IMG/VR virus record: IMGVR_UViG_2721755643_000003
Coordinates: 1-38,533 of that record
Reading direction: 5' to 3' (one strand)
DNA length: 38,533 bases
DNA from: a virus
Lineage: Duplodnaviria; Heunggongvirae; Uroviricota; Caudoviricetes
Position 1 is the first letter of the stretch, and the number at the start of each line of letters is the position of its first letter. The position numbers were made by a program, and so were the translations under genes. Shown here in pieces: positions 1-8,165 of the stretch. The notes beneath the pieces were generated by a model, which was not told the DNA's origin, searched no databases, and saw only the letters and a list, made by a program, of their open reading frames with translations.

Positions 1-50
1 TCGTTTCGGCGTAATTTTCAGCAAACGATCAAAAGTGGTGAAAAATATCG

Positions 51-78
51 TTGACTCATCGCGCCAGGTAAGTAGAAT
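51..78 (+). promoter_or_regulatory. Sigma70-type promoter of the tRNA operon (-35 TTGACT, 16-bp spacer, -10 TAGAAT, A-rich upstream region)
   Basis: Hexamers read directly at 51-56 and 73-78, about 70 nt upstream of the first tRNA; A-rich UP-like stretch at 30-48. Confidence 0.5.
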
Positions 79-151
79 GCAACGCATCGAACGGCGGCAC
101 TGATTGCCAGACGATAATAAAATCAAGTGATTAACTGATTGCTTGATGAAT

Positions 152-227
<76 letters not shown>

Positions 228-281
228 GTTTAAAAGACATCGGCGTCAAGCGGATGTCTGGCTGAAAGGCCTGAAGAATTT

Positions 282-355
282 GGCGCGTTAACAAAGCGGT
301 TATGTAGCGGATTGCAAATCCGTCTAGTCCGGTTCGACTCCGGAACGCGCCTCCA
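282..355 (+). tRNA. cysT: tRNA-Cys (anticodon GCA)
   Basis: 74-nt sequence GGCGCGTTAACAAAGCGG...GCGCCTCCA with anticodon loop ATTGCAAAT; matches cysT from memory. Confidence 0.95.
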
Positions 356-367
356 CTTTCTTCCCGA

Positions 368-454
368 GCCCGGATGGTGGAATCGGTAGACACAAGGGAT
401 TTAAAATCCCTCGGCGTTCGCGCTGTGCGGGTTCAAGTCCCGCTCCGGGTACCA
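368..454 (+). tRNA. leuZ: tRNA-Leu (anticodon UAA), long variable arm
   Basis: 87-nt sequence GCCCGGATGGTGGAATCGGTAGACAC...CCGGGTACCA with anticodon loop TTTAAAAT; class II tRNA with extra arm; matches leuZ from memory. Confidence 0.95.
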
Positions 455-497
455 TGGGAAAGATAAGCATAAAATCAAAGCAATAAGCAGTGTCGTG

Positions 498-522
498 AAA
501 CCACCTTCGGGTGGTTTTTTCG
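498..522 (+). terminator. Rho-independent terminator of the tRNA operon
   Basis: Stem AAACCACC / GGTGGTTT with loop TTCG followed by a T-run (GTGGTTTTTTCG). Confidence 0.7.
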
Positions 523-993
523 TATTTGTATTTTGTGCAATGGCGGTAGAGTGGCGATGGTGTGGCGATATGCAGAAACAATGGTAGTGCACGTGCTGTT
601 TAAACTCTAAGGATGAAGCAGAATTCTTCTGCAGCTCCTCCGTATTTCGCATAGTGAACCAGGACCTCTGTTAAACAAAAATTTTTTTGGGATTTTTCCA
701 CTCGACTTCATTTTTCCTCCTGCAATCCACCAACAGGTACCTGCGCTAATCTATCTTTTTTAATCTGACAACATCTTGGGAAAAGGCAAATTCGTCAGAT
801 TTACTGTTTTTCTGCTGCCTCGAATGCCGATGTCTGAAGCACTGATAAGAGTTCTATCTCTTTGATATAGATCTTTTTTTTGATGAATTGCACGACATAT
901 TATCGTTATGACACCTTCTTGTTAAAGGTATTGTACTCCTCATCTCGATTTTATGATGTGGGCTATGATTGGTTAGTAATAGAGTGTATCGGT

Positions 994-1275
994 ATGCGAT
1001 GTGGTTTATTAATGGCAATCTGCCTTTGTTTAGTATCTTTTAGTGGATATGCAGCAACAGGAAAGTCTGATGCTCAGATCAAAAAAGAAATAATTAAAGA
1101 ATCCATTGAATCTTATCCAGGCAATTGTGCGTGTCCTTATAATCATGCAAGGAATGGTAGTAGATGTGGTGGACGCAGTGCATATAGCCGTAATGGAGGG
1201 TATGACGTGGTATGTTATGAGGGTGATGTTACCGATGAAATGATCCGGCAATGGAAGCAGGAGAATGCTGAGTAA
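994..1275 (+). CDS. Small secreted Cys/Gly-rich protein of unknown function (N-terminal signal peptide)
   Basis: ORF track 880..1275; likely start at the internal Met giving MRCGLLMAICLCLVSFSGYA signal-like N-terminus; AT-rich gene preceded by AT-rich promoter-like DNA (660-880); no family recognised. Confidence 0.4.
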   Translation: MRCGLLMAICLCLVSFSGYAATGKSDAQIKKEIIKESIESYPGNCACPYNHARNGSRCGGRSAYSRNGGYDVVCYEGDVTDEMIRQWKQENAE

Positions 1276-1351
1276 TCTCTTTTAACAGGTTTGTTGTGCG
1301 AGCATTATGTGCCGTTAACGGTACACTAGCTAGTGATAGTTCCAAAAAGAA

Positions 1352-1383
1352 AACCCGCAGTTCTTACGCTGCGGGTTTGTTGT
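1352..1383. terminator. Bidirectional rho-independent terminator between convergent genes
   Basis: Stem CCCGCAG / CTGCGGG flanked by AAAAAGAAAA on one side and TTTGTTGTT on the other, giving a U-tract on either strand. Confidence 0.6.
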
Positions 1384-1463
1384 TCACGTCTGTGAGATAG
1401 GGTGCCACTTCAGCCAACCTTAGCAACCGATTGACGGGGGATTGTTCCCCCGTCGCGGTTTCC

Positions 1464-1604
1464 TTACTGTTTACACTGTAAGAACGCCGCAAACTCCGCT
1501 CCCCAGAAGCTCATCCGTATTTCACACAGCGAACCGTGCAGCATCCAGATGATGAGGATTGCCGTCACGCAGAACGTGATGGCCGTAAGCGATTTTTGCG
1601 ACAT
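1464..1604 (-). CDS. Hok/Gef-family type I toxin-like small membrane peptide (46 aa)
   Basis: Own translation MSQKSLTAITFCVTAILIIWMLHGSLCEIRMSFWGAEFAAFLQCKQ; hydrophobic TM segment then SLCEIR and EFAAF, resembling Hok (SLCEIR...EVAAF); AAGGAG Shine-Dalgarno 8 nt upstream of ATG; below the 60-aa cut-off of the ORF track. Confidence 0.55.
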   Translation of the reverse strand: MSQKSLTAITFCVTAILIIWMLHGSLCEIRMSFWGAEFAAFLQCKQ

Positions 1605-2548
1605 AGCGCTTGCTCCTTTGTTGGAGAGGCGCTAACCTATCACTTGCTTAAGGTAGATATGTTAGGGCCTCGGTTAAACAGAAATGTTTTCCGGGGCCTT
1701 TCCACATCCGGCCTTCGGGTATTCCCTCCGACCATCAGCCGAAAGGCACCCGCGATTATTCTACTGATTTCCCGCTTCTCTGCTACGTAAAGTTTCACGT
1801 CACCCGTTCGGTTCTCCGCGAAAGTTAAAATTTTGCCGCTTTTGTCGCTGCTTTCGTGAGCGGTTTTTGCTTGCGCCTGAAAATAGTTACACAGTGAAAC
1901 TGTGTAACGCTGCGCCAAAACGATCCTTGTCCAATGTTTTGTTTTTACCTTTTATTTCATTGTGTTATGTGGTTCCTGTATGTGGCACTTTGGCGGCATT
2001 CAGATCCTTTAAAATGACGAAAACAAAAAATGGTTTTGTTTTTCATATGGTTAATTTTCCTGTCAGATCCTTTTTTAACGTTAATCTGGCAAAGCCTGGC
2101 AATCTTTGACACTTTGTGCCAGATGGCTTTTTTGTAAAGCGCCAGTGCTGGCGCGGTCTGGAGTGTCGTTTTGCACAAATTTATTTGGCAAAAAATTTTT
2201 ATCGTAAAGAGTGCAAGCGCGGGGGGCTTGCGCCCGTGCCGTGTGTTGGGCTCATCATGCCGTGAAATATCCACGTAGCGTGCGTGTACGCTTTCAGGCG
2301 TTACGAGCTGAATTCAGGGGGACTCGCGCGTTTATTTGCTTAAAGCATGTCGCAGAATGCGATACAGCGCGTCTGGTGGGGGGTGTTTTTCTGGGGGAAT
2401 GCCCGTCGCGACGGGCTTTCGTCTGGTTCGATGAATGAAATTTATTGATATATGAATAATTTCACGAAAGGCTTATTTGTCTGTATTTTGTGGCATGATT
2501 CTTGAGTGGTAAACCGGGCTGCCTGTGCACCTCTTCTCATCTGTAAAC

Positions 2549-4237
2549 TTACTGCTTAATCACGGTACTGTACTTCGCTTTCAGGTTGCCTGCCATTGAT
2601 GCCACCGTGTCTATGCTGCCGCTGTTGGTGGGCTGTGACGACCCGTTGTTGGTATGAGTGTGTTGTGCGGTGAGCTGCGCCAGTTGCTGAACGGTGTCGC
2701 AAAGATCCAGCATGAGGTTAAGTGTGTTGATGGTATTGCTGCCAAACCAGACCTGCGGGGCGATGATCTGTTGCATCTGGCCAGCGACGGATTTTTTAAT
2801 CCGGCCAATCTTTTCTTCCAGCGTTTTCGCCACATTGTGGGTGGTGCTTTCTGTGCTGGTTTGCCACTGGTGAGTAACGTCGAGTTCAGCGCTGTCGGCG
2901 TGCTGTATCAGTTTCTTCGTGGCGGCTACGGCATAGTCACCGTCTGCGATGTGCTGTATGTGGCCGCTCATCAGCTTATGAGTGCCGAGCACCGTTATGG
3001 TGTTGTTGGCCTTTACGGTAATATTACGAGTGGTACTGGTGCGCGTTTCCGTTGTGTTCTGGATGATGCGGTCGGTGGATTTCTCACGAATAACCTGATC
3101 GGTTTCACGCTGCCATGTGCCATCTGTATGCACACGCTGGAATACCTCTGCGCGTTGCTGTTGTAGTTGTTCGCCGGGCTTTATTCCCGGCAGACTCTGG
3201 CCGCTGGCGTGAGTGCCGGTGATGATGGGTTTATCCGGCCTGCCGTCAACGTGGGCCAGTGTAACTATGGTTCCTGGGGGCGGGTACTGGAATATCCCGG
3301 ATTCATTGCCGGCCATTGGCACAGGAACGGGGACGGCGTTATATACCGGTGTGTTCTTATCGGGGGTGCCGTTCTCGTCGAGCAACTGCACATTGACGGC
3401 GTAGCGTGGGCGAAATTCATCATGCAAATCCCCCTGGGTTGTGTTTTCAGTTGGTGAGATCACGCGTCCCATGCGTGGAAGGTGGGTTTTGTTGCCTATC
3501 TCGGGGTAAAGGGTTTCGATCTGGCGTTGTACGGGCGACTGACGGCCATCACTCCAGCTAATGATCATGCTGTCGCCCTGTAGCTGTACCTGATTTATAC
3601 GGTGATCGTTCATGACCACGCCGGGGCGCATCATGGGAATCGTCTGTATTGTCCAGCCATTTGCTCCGTGATCACCTCTGGTGATATCGACCGGCAATCT
3701 GGCAGGGCGTTTTGCAAAACGGCAGTCAGCAAAGCTTCCGGCGTAGATGATGCCGTCAACCGACGGATACCAGACGTAATCCGGGATACTGAATATGCGG
3801 CCAAGCATGGCCATCAGCTGATAACCGTTGCCATTGTGGGTCAGATGAGGGACCGGAGTGGTGGTGTAGCCTGCCTTCGGGAGTTGTATGCGTAAACCTG
3901 TATTGCCTTCAATGTGTCCTGCGACCTGTTTCAGCGTCGGATGCTGCATGGAGATGTTGAGCGGGTATTGCAGAATAGCAGCAGCTTCGCGCACCATCAG
4001 CTTGTGCAGCCCTCTGCCTGTACAACTGTCACTTTCCACATATCCCGAAAACCACTTTACAGGCTGATCATTGTAACCGATGGACAGCTCTACGGGTTTG
4101 CCGCGTAGCGGGGGAGTATTGTCGGCGGCGTTAATGGTGATAAAGCCGGTTCCCGCGCCGTTGAGACGCAACATGATGTTTTCTTCCACGACAGGATAAC
4201 GCCTGCCGTTAATGCAGAGATCACGAATTGGTTTCAT
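2549..4237 (-). CDS. Baseplate hub / central spike protein (gpD- and gpV-like, VgrG-like)
   Basis: 562 aa; N-terminal CINGRRYPV...LNGAGTG resembles the P2 gpD TLNGRDIT region; central GIFQYPPPGTIVTLAHVDGRPDKPIITG resembles the gpV/gp5 OB-fold; C-terminal HxH (GHIQHI); last gene of the tail operon. Confidence 0.55.
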   Translation of the reverse strand: MKPIRDLCINGRRYPVVEENIMLRLNGAGTGFITINAADNTPPLRGKPVELSIGYNDQPVKWFSGYVESDSCTGRGLHKLMVREAAAILQYPLNISMQHPTLKQVAGHIEGNTGLRIQLPKAGYTTTPVPHLTHNGNGYQLMAMLGRIFSIPDYVWYPSVDGIIYAGSFADCRFAKRPARLPVDITRGDHGANGWTIQTIPMMRPGVVMNDHRINQVQLQGDSMIISWSDGRQSPVQRQIETLYPEIGNKTHLPRMGRVISPTENTTQGDLHDEFRPRYAVNVQLLDENGTPDKNTPVYNAVPVPVPMAGNESGIFQYPPPGTIVTLAHVDGRPDKPIITGTHASGQSLPGIKPGEQLQQQRAEVFQRVHTDGTWQRETDQVIREKSTDRIIQNTTETRTSTTRNITVKANNTITVLGTHKLMSGHIQHIADGDYAVAATKKLIQHADSAELDVTHQWQTSTESTTHNVAKTLEEKIGRIKKSVAGQMQQIIAPQVWFGSNTINTLNLMLDLCDTVQQLAQLTAQHTHTNNGSSQPTNSGSIDTVASMAGNLKAKYSTVIKQ

Positions 4238-4787
4238 TGCCTGCCGGGCCTATCCAGTTATTGAGTTTGTCTGACATTTTCCAGAACCAGCCATGCTCTT
4301 CGTTTTTTTCGCCTTTGCCACCTGATTTGACGGCCTGTGCGTGCTGTTCAGCACTCTGGCTGCCAGCCGGGCCGCGTCCTGTCGCCTTTTCGGCACTGCT
4401 GAGTTTTTCTTTCAGAGTGAAGTCAACTTTCCATGCCATCAGGCCTGTTTCAGGAGTTGCGCCCACGGCACCGGAAAAAATCCCTTGCTTCATATTGACC
4501 GCTTTGGCATCCATGTTGGCGATGCGGTAAACCTGTTGTGCACCGTTAGCGGCTCTGGCTTCAGCCAGACGAAATAAGCGTGTGAGTGCTTCCGGCTGGG
4601 TGAACGGAATCAGTCCGGAAATCTGCAGCTCCTTGGCTTTTACACCCTGTTCTGAAGTCGCTGTTGATGAGGATTTTCCGGAAGCGTCTTTGTCTTTGAT
4701 GGTCAGCTTCACGCTGACACTTAAGCGTTTTAGCGGGATTATCTGACCATTAAGGGCCAGCAGTGGCGTTGTCGTGTTCTGGCTCAT
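4221..4787 (-). CDS. Hypothetical phage tail-associated protein
   Basis: 188-aa ORF on the tail-operon strand between the fibre chaperone and hub/spike; Lys/Ala/Ser-rich; no family recognised; GC content similar to core genes. Confidence 0.35.
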   Translation of the reverse strand: MSQNTTTPLLALNGQIIPLKRLSVSVKLTIKDKDASGKSSSTATSEQGVKAKELQISGLIPFTQPEALTRLFRLAEARAANGAQQVYRIANMDAKAVNMKQGIFSGAVGATPETGLMAWKVDFTLKEKLSSAEKATGRGPAGSQSAEQHAQAVKSGGKGEKNEEHGWFWKMSDKLNNWIGPAGNETNS

Positions 4788-5493
4788 TTTCTGCCTTCGT
4801 TATCCAGTTCAGCATCCCGGAAAGATCGCCTGCGAACAGGTGTGCATATGTCAGTGAAGCTGTGGGGTGCGGAATATTTTTCATCATTTCCCGGCGGGCT
4901 AAAACGGCGTCGCCGGTGTGCACGAACGCAAATGCTTTTGCCACTTTATCGCCTGCTCCTGCCAGTTCAGCGATTATCTGTTGCTGCAACCGTTGACGTT
5001 GTGCCTGAAAACCGGATAACGCGTTTTTCAGTGAGTCGACAGAGTTCAGCCCTTCGGCCTTCATAGCGTTAAGCGCGGTGTGGTTACTGATGCTGTTCTG
5101 TAGTGTGCTGGCAATAAGTGGTTGCGGAGCGGGTAGTCCGTTCTGTGGTGTCGCCGGGATTTGCATTCTGGTGATTGCCTGGGTGAGCTGTGTTCTTGCG
5201 CGTCTTAGCGTCTGCGTCAGAGTGGGTAAAGGGAGTGTGTCTGCCAGTGCTGACAGTTGACGAATAAAATCGTTATTATTGCTGCCTGTTACCATTATGA
5301 TGGCGATATCGCTGTTTTCGGTCAGGCCCGGGAGTTTGCTGTTAAGGTGGTTTATTGCGTTGACGGGGCTTAAATACGCACCGTCTGGCGTAATGTGCCC
5401 CGCTTCAACATCCCACGGATGTACGGCCATAGCTGAACATGTTATGGGGGTGATATTACCTGTCGGAAGCATCAGTTTTGCCGGAAACCACAT
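4750..5493 (-). CDS. Hypothetical phage tail-associated protein
   Basis: ORF track 4750..5688, trimmed to the Met at 5493, which has a GAGAGG Shine-Dalgarno 8 nt upstream and avoids overlap with the upstream gene; no family recognised. Confidence 0.35.
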   Translation of the reverse strand: MWFPAKLMLPTGNITPITCSAMAVHPWDVEAGHITPDGAYLSPVNAINHLNSKLPGLTENSDIAIIMVTGSNNNDFIRQLSALADTLPLPTLTQTLRRARTQLTQAITRMQIPATPQNGLPAPQPLIASTLQNSISNHTALNAMKAEGLNSVDSLKNALSGFQAQRQRLQQQIIAELAGAGDKVAKAFAFVHTGDAVLARREMMKNIPHPTASLTYAHLFAGDLSGMLNWITKAENEPEHDNATAGP

Positions 5494-5629
5494 ATCTGTA
5501 CCTCTCTTGTCTGCTGTTTTCTGGAATAGCTGCCCGGTCAGAAATGTGCACGGACTGGTGCGTCGCAATTTGTTTCCACTCTGGCATGCCGGTGTATTCG
5601 CAAAAGGCCTGGCGTTCGGGCCTTGGTTT

Positions 5630-6157
5630 TCACCCGGGCTTTTGTGGCCATTCAGGTTTTGCAGTGTCCACACGGCTGACCAGAACACTGTAGCGTTCCC
5701 ATGCTTCCAGTCGTGTGCGTTCCTCGTCTGTTGCCATATTCAGCCTGACAGCGCGTTCCAGCGGCTGGATGACTGATTCAGCTTCGGAAAGTAACGCGGC
5801 CTTTTGTGATTCGGCCTGTTGTTGCTGCTCGCCTGCCGTATAAATCCGCTTAACCACAGCTCCGTCCTTAAACATCCACTTCCCGGAGTCATCAGCACGT
5901 CGGTTGGCGGTAATATCAGGAACTTCGACAACGCTGAAACCTTCAGGATTAAGCGTTGAGGTATCTTTGGTAATGGCAACAATAATATTATTTTCGTCGT
6001 AAACAATCTTTATTGTATCTGGCTGAAAGTTCTTCACTTCCTCATACCAGTTTTTCCCGTCTTCAGCGTAAAGCCAGATGACTCTGTGCTTCTTTGTTAA
6101 CTCATACTGTTCCGGCGTTTTAGCGTTACCCGCTTTTATGTTCTTTAAGTGCATCAT
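5630..6157 (-). CDS. Tail fibre assembly chaperone (P2 gpG / Tfa-like)
   Basis: 175 aa starting [10 protein letters not shown]; immediately downstream of the tail fibre gene; size and N-terminus typical of the Tfa family. Confidence 0.75.
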
Positions 6158-6158
6158 A

Positions 6159-8165
6159 TTAAATACTCGCTACGTTATACCAGGTGCCATTAATCAGTTT
6201 TTGCAGCGGTCGGTAATACACACCGTTGACGTTATCCGCTGAGTTACGGCCGGTATCCGATATCGATATCCCTGACAGCCCGTGTCCCGAAGGTGAGCGA
6301 AACGTCCATGAAACGGTGTTGCTGCCAGGGTTGTAATACATTTCATGGCCATACCGCACATCCTGTACCCCCTCAGTTCGATGTTTATAGCGGGCATCGA
6401 AGTTTCCGTAATTTAACGGAATTACCTGTCCGTTTACGGCGAACGTGATGCTGTTATCTGTATTCCTCTGGCTGAAAAAATGCCAGCCTGAATCATCACC
6501 AAGCTCTGCAACAACAGGCCTGGATGGATTACCCCACAAATAAAACGCTGCATTTTTCGTGGAGTTGTTGGCGCTGGATAACGTGAATTTTCTGGCAGTT
6601 CCGGCCTGAATATTCTTAAAAGCAATAGTCACACCATTCTGAAAACGGAATACTCGCTGACCATTCGCATAAACATCAAGCAGACCATCGCCATTTTGTT
6701 TAAACCCGGTATCGTTATCTCCTAAAACGATTGAACTTCCACCTAACGCATTCGTCGTACCAATTCCAAGACAACCATTAATGACGGCATTAACCAGAAT
6801 ATTTAGTGAATCCCATTTAAGATTCATCAGGTCTTTAACCCGGCCGCCAGCGAGGCGGTGTCTCCATTTGAAATATTCATTACCGTTATCCGCCGTTTCA
6901 AACCACATGTAGGAATCGGTGTCTGCATCCGAATCATTTTTAAATCCAATCTTCGCCCAGTCAGTATTCCGAATCCAGGCGAGGATTGAGTCGTTTTCAA
7001 AAGTCAGTCCACCGGACAAGGTATCGCCTGTCTTTTGGACAGCGTTATCAGCCTTGTTTACCGTTTCCTGTAAACCAACGTTCTGGATAAACAGCGGTTT
7101 ATCGGGAATATCTGCTCCGTTCTGATTTTTTTGCAGCGCTCCTGTGATGCGGATGTCGTCACCTGCGGCTACAGTGTCCTGCGCGGTGCCAACATTAAGG
7201 GTGGCGCTGTCGCCGAGGCCCATATGCTTTCTGGCATCAGACTGGGCCTGTTCACCTTTGTCAGCAATTTCTTTCAGGTTCCCGTTACGGGTCAGGTATT
7301 CGCCATCAAGGCGGTCATTTAATGGTTTGCGGGTTTTTCGTATATCGGTGATCTCGCCACTGTCTGATATTGTGGCGATGGGTTCGACATAATGGGCAAA
7401 TCCTGAACTGTCGGTATAGTCGGCTGTTTTCTGACTCGTCAGGCTGAATATGGCTTTATTTTCCCCGGTCAGGGTACCGGTTAATGCCGCGTCAACATAA
7501 ACAGTTTGTGAAATTCCGGTGGCGTATGTCAGTGTGCCTTGTTCATCCAGCTCCACACGTAATCCGCGCAGATAGGCAATACCCGGCGCGAAGGTCGCCT
7601 GCCCGGTAGCCTGAGCGGTGAGTTTAAAGGCGTTATTAAAGAACAGGCCAGGCCCGTAGATATCCAGCGCCGCTTTGCGGGTGGCCTCGTCCATGCCGTG
7701 AAGCCGTGCCGTAAAATCAATCTGCCAGGTGCTTACTGGCGTGGTGATGCCGGTTGCGGCGCTGGCTCCGGCGTATTCCATAATTTCAGAATAAATCAGG
7801 GTATTACCCTGTTTGCCGTCTGCGGTTTTTATTTTTTTCTGAGGGTGAAGATATACCACCATACAAAGTGTATTTGTGGTGCTGCTTACCAGACCCAGCC
7901 AGTTAAAAGTAAAATCACCCGTGGACTCCGGCAGGGTAACGGAGTAGGCGACGGTGTTCTCATTTACCATTCCGTTGCGATCAACGTTCTGGCGGTGAAC
8001 TATCTGTGCATCGGGGGGCAATGGTTCGTTTTCAGACGGCGTGTCGGCAATGTTCAGATCCGGGATATTTGCAAATACAAACTGATCAATGATGATACGG
8101 TTGCCGCCTGCGGCTTCCTGCGCTTTCAGGCGCTCAAATGCTGAAGTGATAGCGCTCTGGGTCAT
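6159..8165 (-). CDS. Tail fibre protein (P2 gpH-like C-terminal receptor-binding region)
   Basis: 668 aa; C-terminal ~300 aa ([48 protein letters not shown]...[11 protein letters not shown]) closely matches the remembered P2 gpH C-terminus; N-terminal part differs. Confidence 0.85.

Follow-up and report, generated by a model that had tools for sequence, protein, structure and literature searches.

Gene organization downstream of the tail fibre assembly gene

On the minus strand of the window (the whole 38,533-nt stretch of DNA that was analysed), a gene for a tail fibre assembly protein (Tfa, 5630-6157) is followed by a geneless gap of 136 nt (5494-5629) and then by three genes, orfA, orfB and orfC. 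This layout agrees with an earlier note on the same DNA, which had reported a gap of that length after Tfa and then genes of 247, 188 and 562 aa. The features of the region are as follows.

5630..6157, minus strand: Tfa, tail fibre assembly protein (Pfam Caudo_TAP, 7.1e-37), a context gene
5604..5624, minus strand: weak hairpin, AAGGCC-N9-GGCCTT, right after the Tfa stop codon, at the cassette junction
5494..5590, minus strand: non-coding relic of a DUF1353-family gene, from its 3' end, ~80% nucleotide identity to Salmonella L007
4750..5493, minus strand: orfA, 247 aa from the ATG at 5493, HP1 orf33 family
4221..4787, minus strand: orfB, 188 aa, HP1 orf34 family
2549..4237, minus strand: orfC, 562 aa, HP1 orf35 family, hub and spike
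3533..4237, minus strand: orfC N-terminal domain, aa 1-~235, presumed hub ('mounting') domain and counterpart of P2 gpD and T4 gp27
2549..3532, minus strand: orfC C-terminal spike, aa ~236-562, with putative OB-fold and beta-helix, and an HxH apex; stop codon included

All three are real genes, and each has a strong family match: orfA to phrog_1677 (1.5e-41), orfB to PF25759 (1.2e-48) and orfC to phrog_2258 (5.7e-196). The reading frames of orfA and orfB overlap by 38 nt and those of orfB and orfC by 17 nt; the stop/start overlap of the latter pair suggests that both are co-translated. The orfA start at 5493 is supported by residues M1-W2, which are invariant in homologues, and by a GAGAGG motif 8 nt upstream. 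The start called by RefSeq/PGAP yields 226 aa and is too short. An Rfam scan of positions 1-6200 returned three tRNAs and nothing else. Downstream of orfC lies a low-GC cargo stretch with hok/gef.

The element is a prophage integrated between leuZ and yecA in E. coli, where it is rare (5 of 5426 complete genomes); its closest relatives are in Salmonella. The other late-region genes that we scanned match gpL, gpR, gpS (weakly), sheath (DUF2586), tube (HP1_Orf24), chaperone, tape measure, DUF2590, J and I. No hub, spike or tube initiator was found among the other Pfam-scanned late genes or the RefSeq-named prophage genes, and none of the prophage genes scanned showed a LysM domain.

Conservation of the module in the HP1 subgroup

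By sequence comparison, orfA, orfB and orfC are orthologues of orf33, orf34 and orf35 of Haemophilus phage HP1, with an hhalign probability of 99.1% for orfA, 45% BLASTP identity (2e-36) for orfB and 34% tblastn identity over the full length for orfC. The order fibre-chaperone-orf33-orf34-orf35 is common to HP1, K139, phiO18P, ESSI-2, vB_YenM_324, phi3, ACA1 and Salmonella prophages, in agreement with our local hmmsearch, and the orf33-34-35 order and families are kept in eight or more genera from different hosts. Within Peduoviridae, these three are the standard closing genes of the HP1-subgroup tail operon. A member of the orf33 family was found upstream of orf34 in 9 of the 11 distinct phages/prophages examined by local hmmsearch. 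The same search detected none in PV94 or SMHB1, and the family is therefore not a universal core part. The vB_YenM_324 homologue, gp33, carries the annotation 'structural protein', and we found no literature on this phage; in the PV94 paper, the mass spectrometry reported concerns only the tape measure and a single baseplate protein.

orfC, a presumed hub-spike fusion

Residues 1-561 of orfC align with positions 1-544 of the 544 in the phrog_2258 profile, which is annotated 'baseplate protein', and tblastn aligned 100% of its length with HP1, HP2, K139, phiO18P, ESSI-2 and YenM_324, at 33-45% identity. The earlier note had seen a gpV-like spike and hub-like motifs in this protein. The likeness to spikes is real but weak. 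Pfam Phage_base_V matched aa 302-342 with 20.8 bits (cut-off 23.8; E 4.9e-4), TIGR01646 vgr_GE matched at 2.9e-7, and an orfC profile searched against PDB sequences returned VgrG 8gra (3.7e-5, aa 316-481) and the T4 gp5 beta-helix (0.016), in the expected place and order. The HxH tip motif, also pointed out beforehand, was borne out: neither H526 nor H528 (nt 2654-2662) varies among five orthologues (33-46% identity). Such a motif near the C-terminus is known from iron-loaded spike apices of the gpV / phi92 gp138 type. The three motifs brought together at the apex of an orfC trimer probably hold a metal ion.

For the hub domain, our own comparison gives weak support. In PV94, SMHB1, ACA1 and phi3, hub and spike are separate genes, and the break falls at profile position ~226-231. 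An alignment of the hub domain (10 sequences) showed a weak, co-linear match to an alignment of gpD (8 sequences) over 144 N-terminal columns (hhalign, E 0.0016, probability 16%). Direct hhalign of orfC against single P2 gpD and gpV sequences was negative, and the hub-domain profile retrieved no hub from PDB sequences, its one match being non-significant (7aef chain q, E 0.64). HP1 orf35 has been described as a fusion of P2 gpD and gpV homologues (PMC10612066), and HHpred linked ACA1 gp48 to the HP1 orf35 N-terminus and to P2 gpD at 10% identity (PMC10612066 Table S1). Residues 1-~235 of orfC are presumed to form a baseplate hub domain, the counterpart of gpD and gp27.

orfB, a predicted tube initiator

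The 188-aa protein had been thought to match nothing; in fact it belongs to the curated Pfam family PF25759 (HP1_ORF34, 'baseplate complex protein'), with 165.6 bits against a gathering cut-off of 27 and residues 10-179 aligned to model positions 3-175 of 180. Structure prediction with AF2, in which the models of both orfA and orfB had a moderate overall pLDDT of 68-69, gave for orfB a tail-tube (Hcp-like) beta-sandwich (core aa 10-127) that is flanked by a single helix and bears a long inner hairpin, the fold of contractile-tail tube initiators such as P2 gpU, PA0626, Pam3 gp17 and Pa193 gp38/39. It is followed by a disordered C-terminal extension that ends in a conserved amphipathic helix. 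The predicted fold indicates that orfB is the tube initiator of the baseplate, a functional analogue of P2 gpU and of the pyocin 'ripcord'. HP1 orf34 has tentatively been called gpU, on an HHpred link to PF06995 that the authors marked 'uncertain' (PMC10612066). In our comparisons, hhalign of the orfB family profile to the single P2 gpU sequence was negative, with a probability of 0.5%. Because of this low probability and the uncertain published link, we do not place orfB in the gpU family and regard it as an analogue or very distant homologue. The virion proteins of ACA1 identified by mass spectrometry do not include the homologue gp47 (PMC10612066).

orfA, a subgroup-specific virion protein

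The 247-aa protein had likewise been reported to match nothing. That holds for function and fold, but orfA does have a family, since it is a member of phrog_1677, a PHROG family of unknown function. No recognisable fold emerged for orfA, and it shows neither the LysM fold nor the LysM sequence of the baseplate 'glue' class (P2 gpX, T4 gp53, PA0627). A long helical hairpin is predicted at aa 128-182. Searches of PDB sequences with orfA and orfB, as single sequences and as profiles, yielded coiled-coil noise only. Profiles of the two proteins were also negative against 15 P2 tail/late proteins (best match gpX, E 0.029, probability 1.7%), as was direct hhalign of orfA with the single P2 gpX sequence. 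Because no fold can be recognised in orfA and nothing in its sequence links it to P2 tail proteins, its role in the baseplate is one that we infer.

A homologue of orfA is known from particles: ACA1 gp46 was found in purified virions by mass spectrometry, with 2 spectra in this one distant phage (PMC10612066 Table S2). Its spectral count per kDa was 0.09, and those of gpW, gpJ and gpV were 0.05-0.08 (PMC10612066). These data are consistent with orfA being a low-copy virion protein specific to the HP1 subgroup. Its most likely role is that of an accessory baseplate component, helping to tie the hub/tube-initiator complex to the gpW-J-I wedges.

The link between hub and wedge in P2, pyocins and T4 is a LysM protein, and this LysM 'glue' is otherwise near-universal. 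It is conceivable, though rather doubtful, that the orf33 family is a new-fold baseplate protein that replaces the LysM 'glue' (gpX/gp53/PA0627) in the HP1 subgroup. If so, orf33 would be a non-orthologous replacement inside the conserved core of contractile injection machines.

It is possible, though less likely than not, that orfA is a structural or assembly protein of another kind, either an adaptor for fibre attachment or a hub/spike chaperone that leaves only traces in the particle. The gene has the fibre/chaperone genes on one side and the hub genes on the other, it is absent where the fibre set differs strongly (PV94, with a 977-aa fibre and no Tfa; SMHB1), the predicted helical hairpin would suit a scaffold or adaptor, and two spectra are few. 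However, the orfA family stays constant while the fibre/chaperone cassettes beside it change completely, from Caudo_TAP here to DUF4376 and DUF1353 in Salmonella and a DGR-type antireceptor in ACA1, which argues against a fibre-specific adaptor. Per kDa, moreover, the spectral count of gp46 equals that of bona fide baseplate proteins. The data themselves would suit a glue, an adaptor or a chaperone.

Origin of the 136-nt gap

The segment 5616-6194 of the window is 84-92% identical in nucleotide sequence to the S-U / H-G cassettes of P1, SfMu, P7, P2, D108 and Mu, which assigns Tfa to a horizontally exchanged Mu/P1/P2-type cassette of fibre tip and Tfa. Most of the gap has a different source: the ~97 nt at 5494..5590 are ~80% identical to the L007 region upstream of the orf33 homologue of L007. 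In Salmonella L007-L009 the order is fibre-DUF4376-DUF1353-orf33, with a spacing of 2 nt before orf33. The cassette replaced ancestral fibre, DUF4376 and DUF1353 genes, and the swap truncated the DUF1353 gene, leaving ~97 nt of its 3' end before orfA. This DUF1353-derived remnant holds the ribosome-binding site of orfA. The gap is a recombination scar rather than a control element.

The earlier note had described a GC hairpin and a T-run in the gap and had taken the gap to set the three genes off as a unit. In the corresponding regulatory reading, the hairpin would be a terminator after Tfa, a separate promoter would follow, and the three genes would be transcribed as a unit of their own. Directly 3' of the Tfa stop codon there is indeed a hairpin with T residues after it, and 136 geneless nucleotides are unusual within a tightly packed late operon. 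The hairpin is weak, however: its stem measures 6 bp and its loop 9 nt, two further T follow the stem, and its four consecutive T (5605-5602) include two of the stem. An intrinsic terminator would have 5 or more bp in a GC-rich stem, a 3-8 nt loop and 5 or more T in a row, and the loop and T-run seen here depart from this. The terminator scan did not report the hairpin. The hairpin is not common to the sequence downstream of P2 G, and folding of the whole gap was no better than that of shuffled sequence (z = 0.61). A search of the minus strand of the gap revealed no sigma-70-like promoter. Nor does the gap hold a P2-type late-promoter/activator motif, TGT-N12-ACA, of which the window has 8 sites against 10 expected. 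In relatives, the orf33 homologue overlaps the preceding gene or sits 2-32 nt from it, and ~97 nt of the gap are themselves the relic of a truncated gene. A regulatory boundary at this position is improbable, and the scar does not mark off the three genes as a separate unit.

The module is structural, not cargo

The earlier note had equated the position after the fibre chaperone with the variable Z/fun locus of P2 and had left a choice between cargo and 'unusual baseplate components'. The latter stands as to the baseplate and falls as to 'unusual', the genes being the standard end of the HP1-subgroup tail operon. That orfA and orfB are accessory phage-exclusion or defence cargo in such a slot, with orfC alone structural, is scarcely credible: the position directly after Tfa resembles that of Z/fun on the P2 map, orfA has no known fold or function and it is undetectable in two HP1-subgroup phages, but order and families are conserved where a variable slot would show the opposite, orfB has the predicted tube fold of a tube initiator and belongs to a curated baseplate family, its stop/start overlap with orfC suggests co-translation, an orfA homologue is present in virions (PMC10612066), PADLOC gave no defence match to orfA, orfB or orfC at E<0.1, hhalign found no similarity to P2 Z/fun, and the actual low-GC cargo with hok/gef lies beyond orfC.

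The note had named beforehand, as the outcome that would speak against it, both proteins being stoichiometric virion components with clear homology to known baseplate proteins. This is largely what was found: the 188-aa protein has clear structural homology to baseplate tube initiators and the 247-aa protein has a homologue in ACA1 virions (PMC10612066), although the latter shows no homology to known baseplate proteins. The module is an ordinary structural module of known type. It supplies the hub, spike and tube-initiator functions that are otherwise unmatched among the RefSeq-annotated or Pfam-scanned genes of the prophage.

A model of the central baseplate

Taken together, the data make it highly probable that these genes specify the central (hub) part of the baseplate in a contractile-tailed prophage that is related to P2 and belongs to the HP1 subgroup. 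The three are translationally coupled orthologues of HP1 orf33, orf34 and orf35, and they are transcribed last in the late tail operon. In our model, an orfC trimer would form a VgrG-like hub-spike fusion, the N-terminal hub seating the tube and the OB-fold, beta-helix and HxH apex serving as the membrane-piercing tip. A ring of orfB on the hub would nucleate the tube that grows around the tape measure. The C-terminal extension of orfB would probably reach out to the wedge, to which orfA would help to tie the hub and tube initiator. For all three products, we infer these contacts and the stoichiometry.

The genes for hub, spike and tube initiator thus sit after the tail-fibre chaperone in P2-like prophages of the HP1 type, and they are therefore not to be mistaken for Z/fun-like cargo or defence genes. 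The analysis also corrects annotations: the label 'type VI secretion system Vgr family protein' on orfC, 'DNA-binding protein' and 'adenine glycosylase' on orf34 homologues, and a start codon called too late in an orf33 homologue. orf33 itself is of some interest as a subgroup-restricted virion protein without a recognisable fold, in a baseplate in which no LysM domain was detected.

Comparison with known systems

Phage Mu has separate genes for the hub (gp44) and the spike (gp45), which are placed, together with that for gp43 (DNA circularization protein N), between its tape measure and wedge genes; gp43, of about 450 aa, has additional domains.

The presumed domain order of orfC, from hub through OB-fold to beta-helix, is that of T6SS VgrG, Afp8 and Pvc8, the matches to Pvc8 and Afp8 being weak. 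The HxH at the apex is a feature of phage spikes, unlike T6SS VgrG. As a T6SS component, the PGAP label, orfC was rejected: it scores far below the VgrG family cut-offs (29.8 vs 121.8 bits for TIGR01646; 23.3 vs 186 bits for TIGR03361), and it sits in a complete prophage and not in a T6SS locus.

Relative to P2, no sequence similarity to gpU, gpV or gpX is detectable here, and that to the gpD family is weak only. Hub and spike form one polypeptide, whereas they are separate in P2 (gpD, gpV). U and D of P2 follow the tape measure and V precedes W, whereas the genes here come after the fibre genes. orf33 has no P2 counterpart; P2 gpX has a LysM domain, and none was detected here. The pyocin R2 counterparts of the P2 gpU, gpD, gpV and gpX set are PA0626 (the ripcord), PA0628, PA0616 and PA0627.

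In HP1, the same three families occur in the same order, directly after the fibre/chaperone genes and at the end of the tail operon. Equivalents of HP1 orf33-35 are K139 orf37-39, phiO18P gp44-46, ESSI-2 gp05/03/01, vB_YenM_324 gp33-35 and ACA1 gp46-49. Identity to HP1 is 28-45%, the sizes are alike (258, 187 and 533 aa in HP1; 247, 188 and 562 aa here), and hub and spike are fused in both. Here, unlike in HP1, the scar of 136 nt stands between the module and a swapped-in Tfa of the Mu/P1/P2 type.

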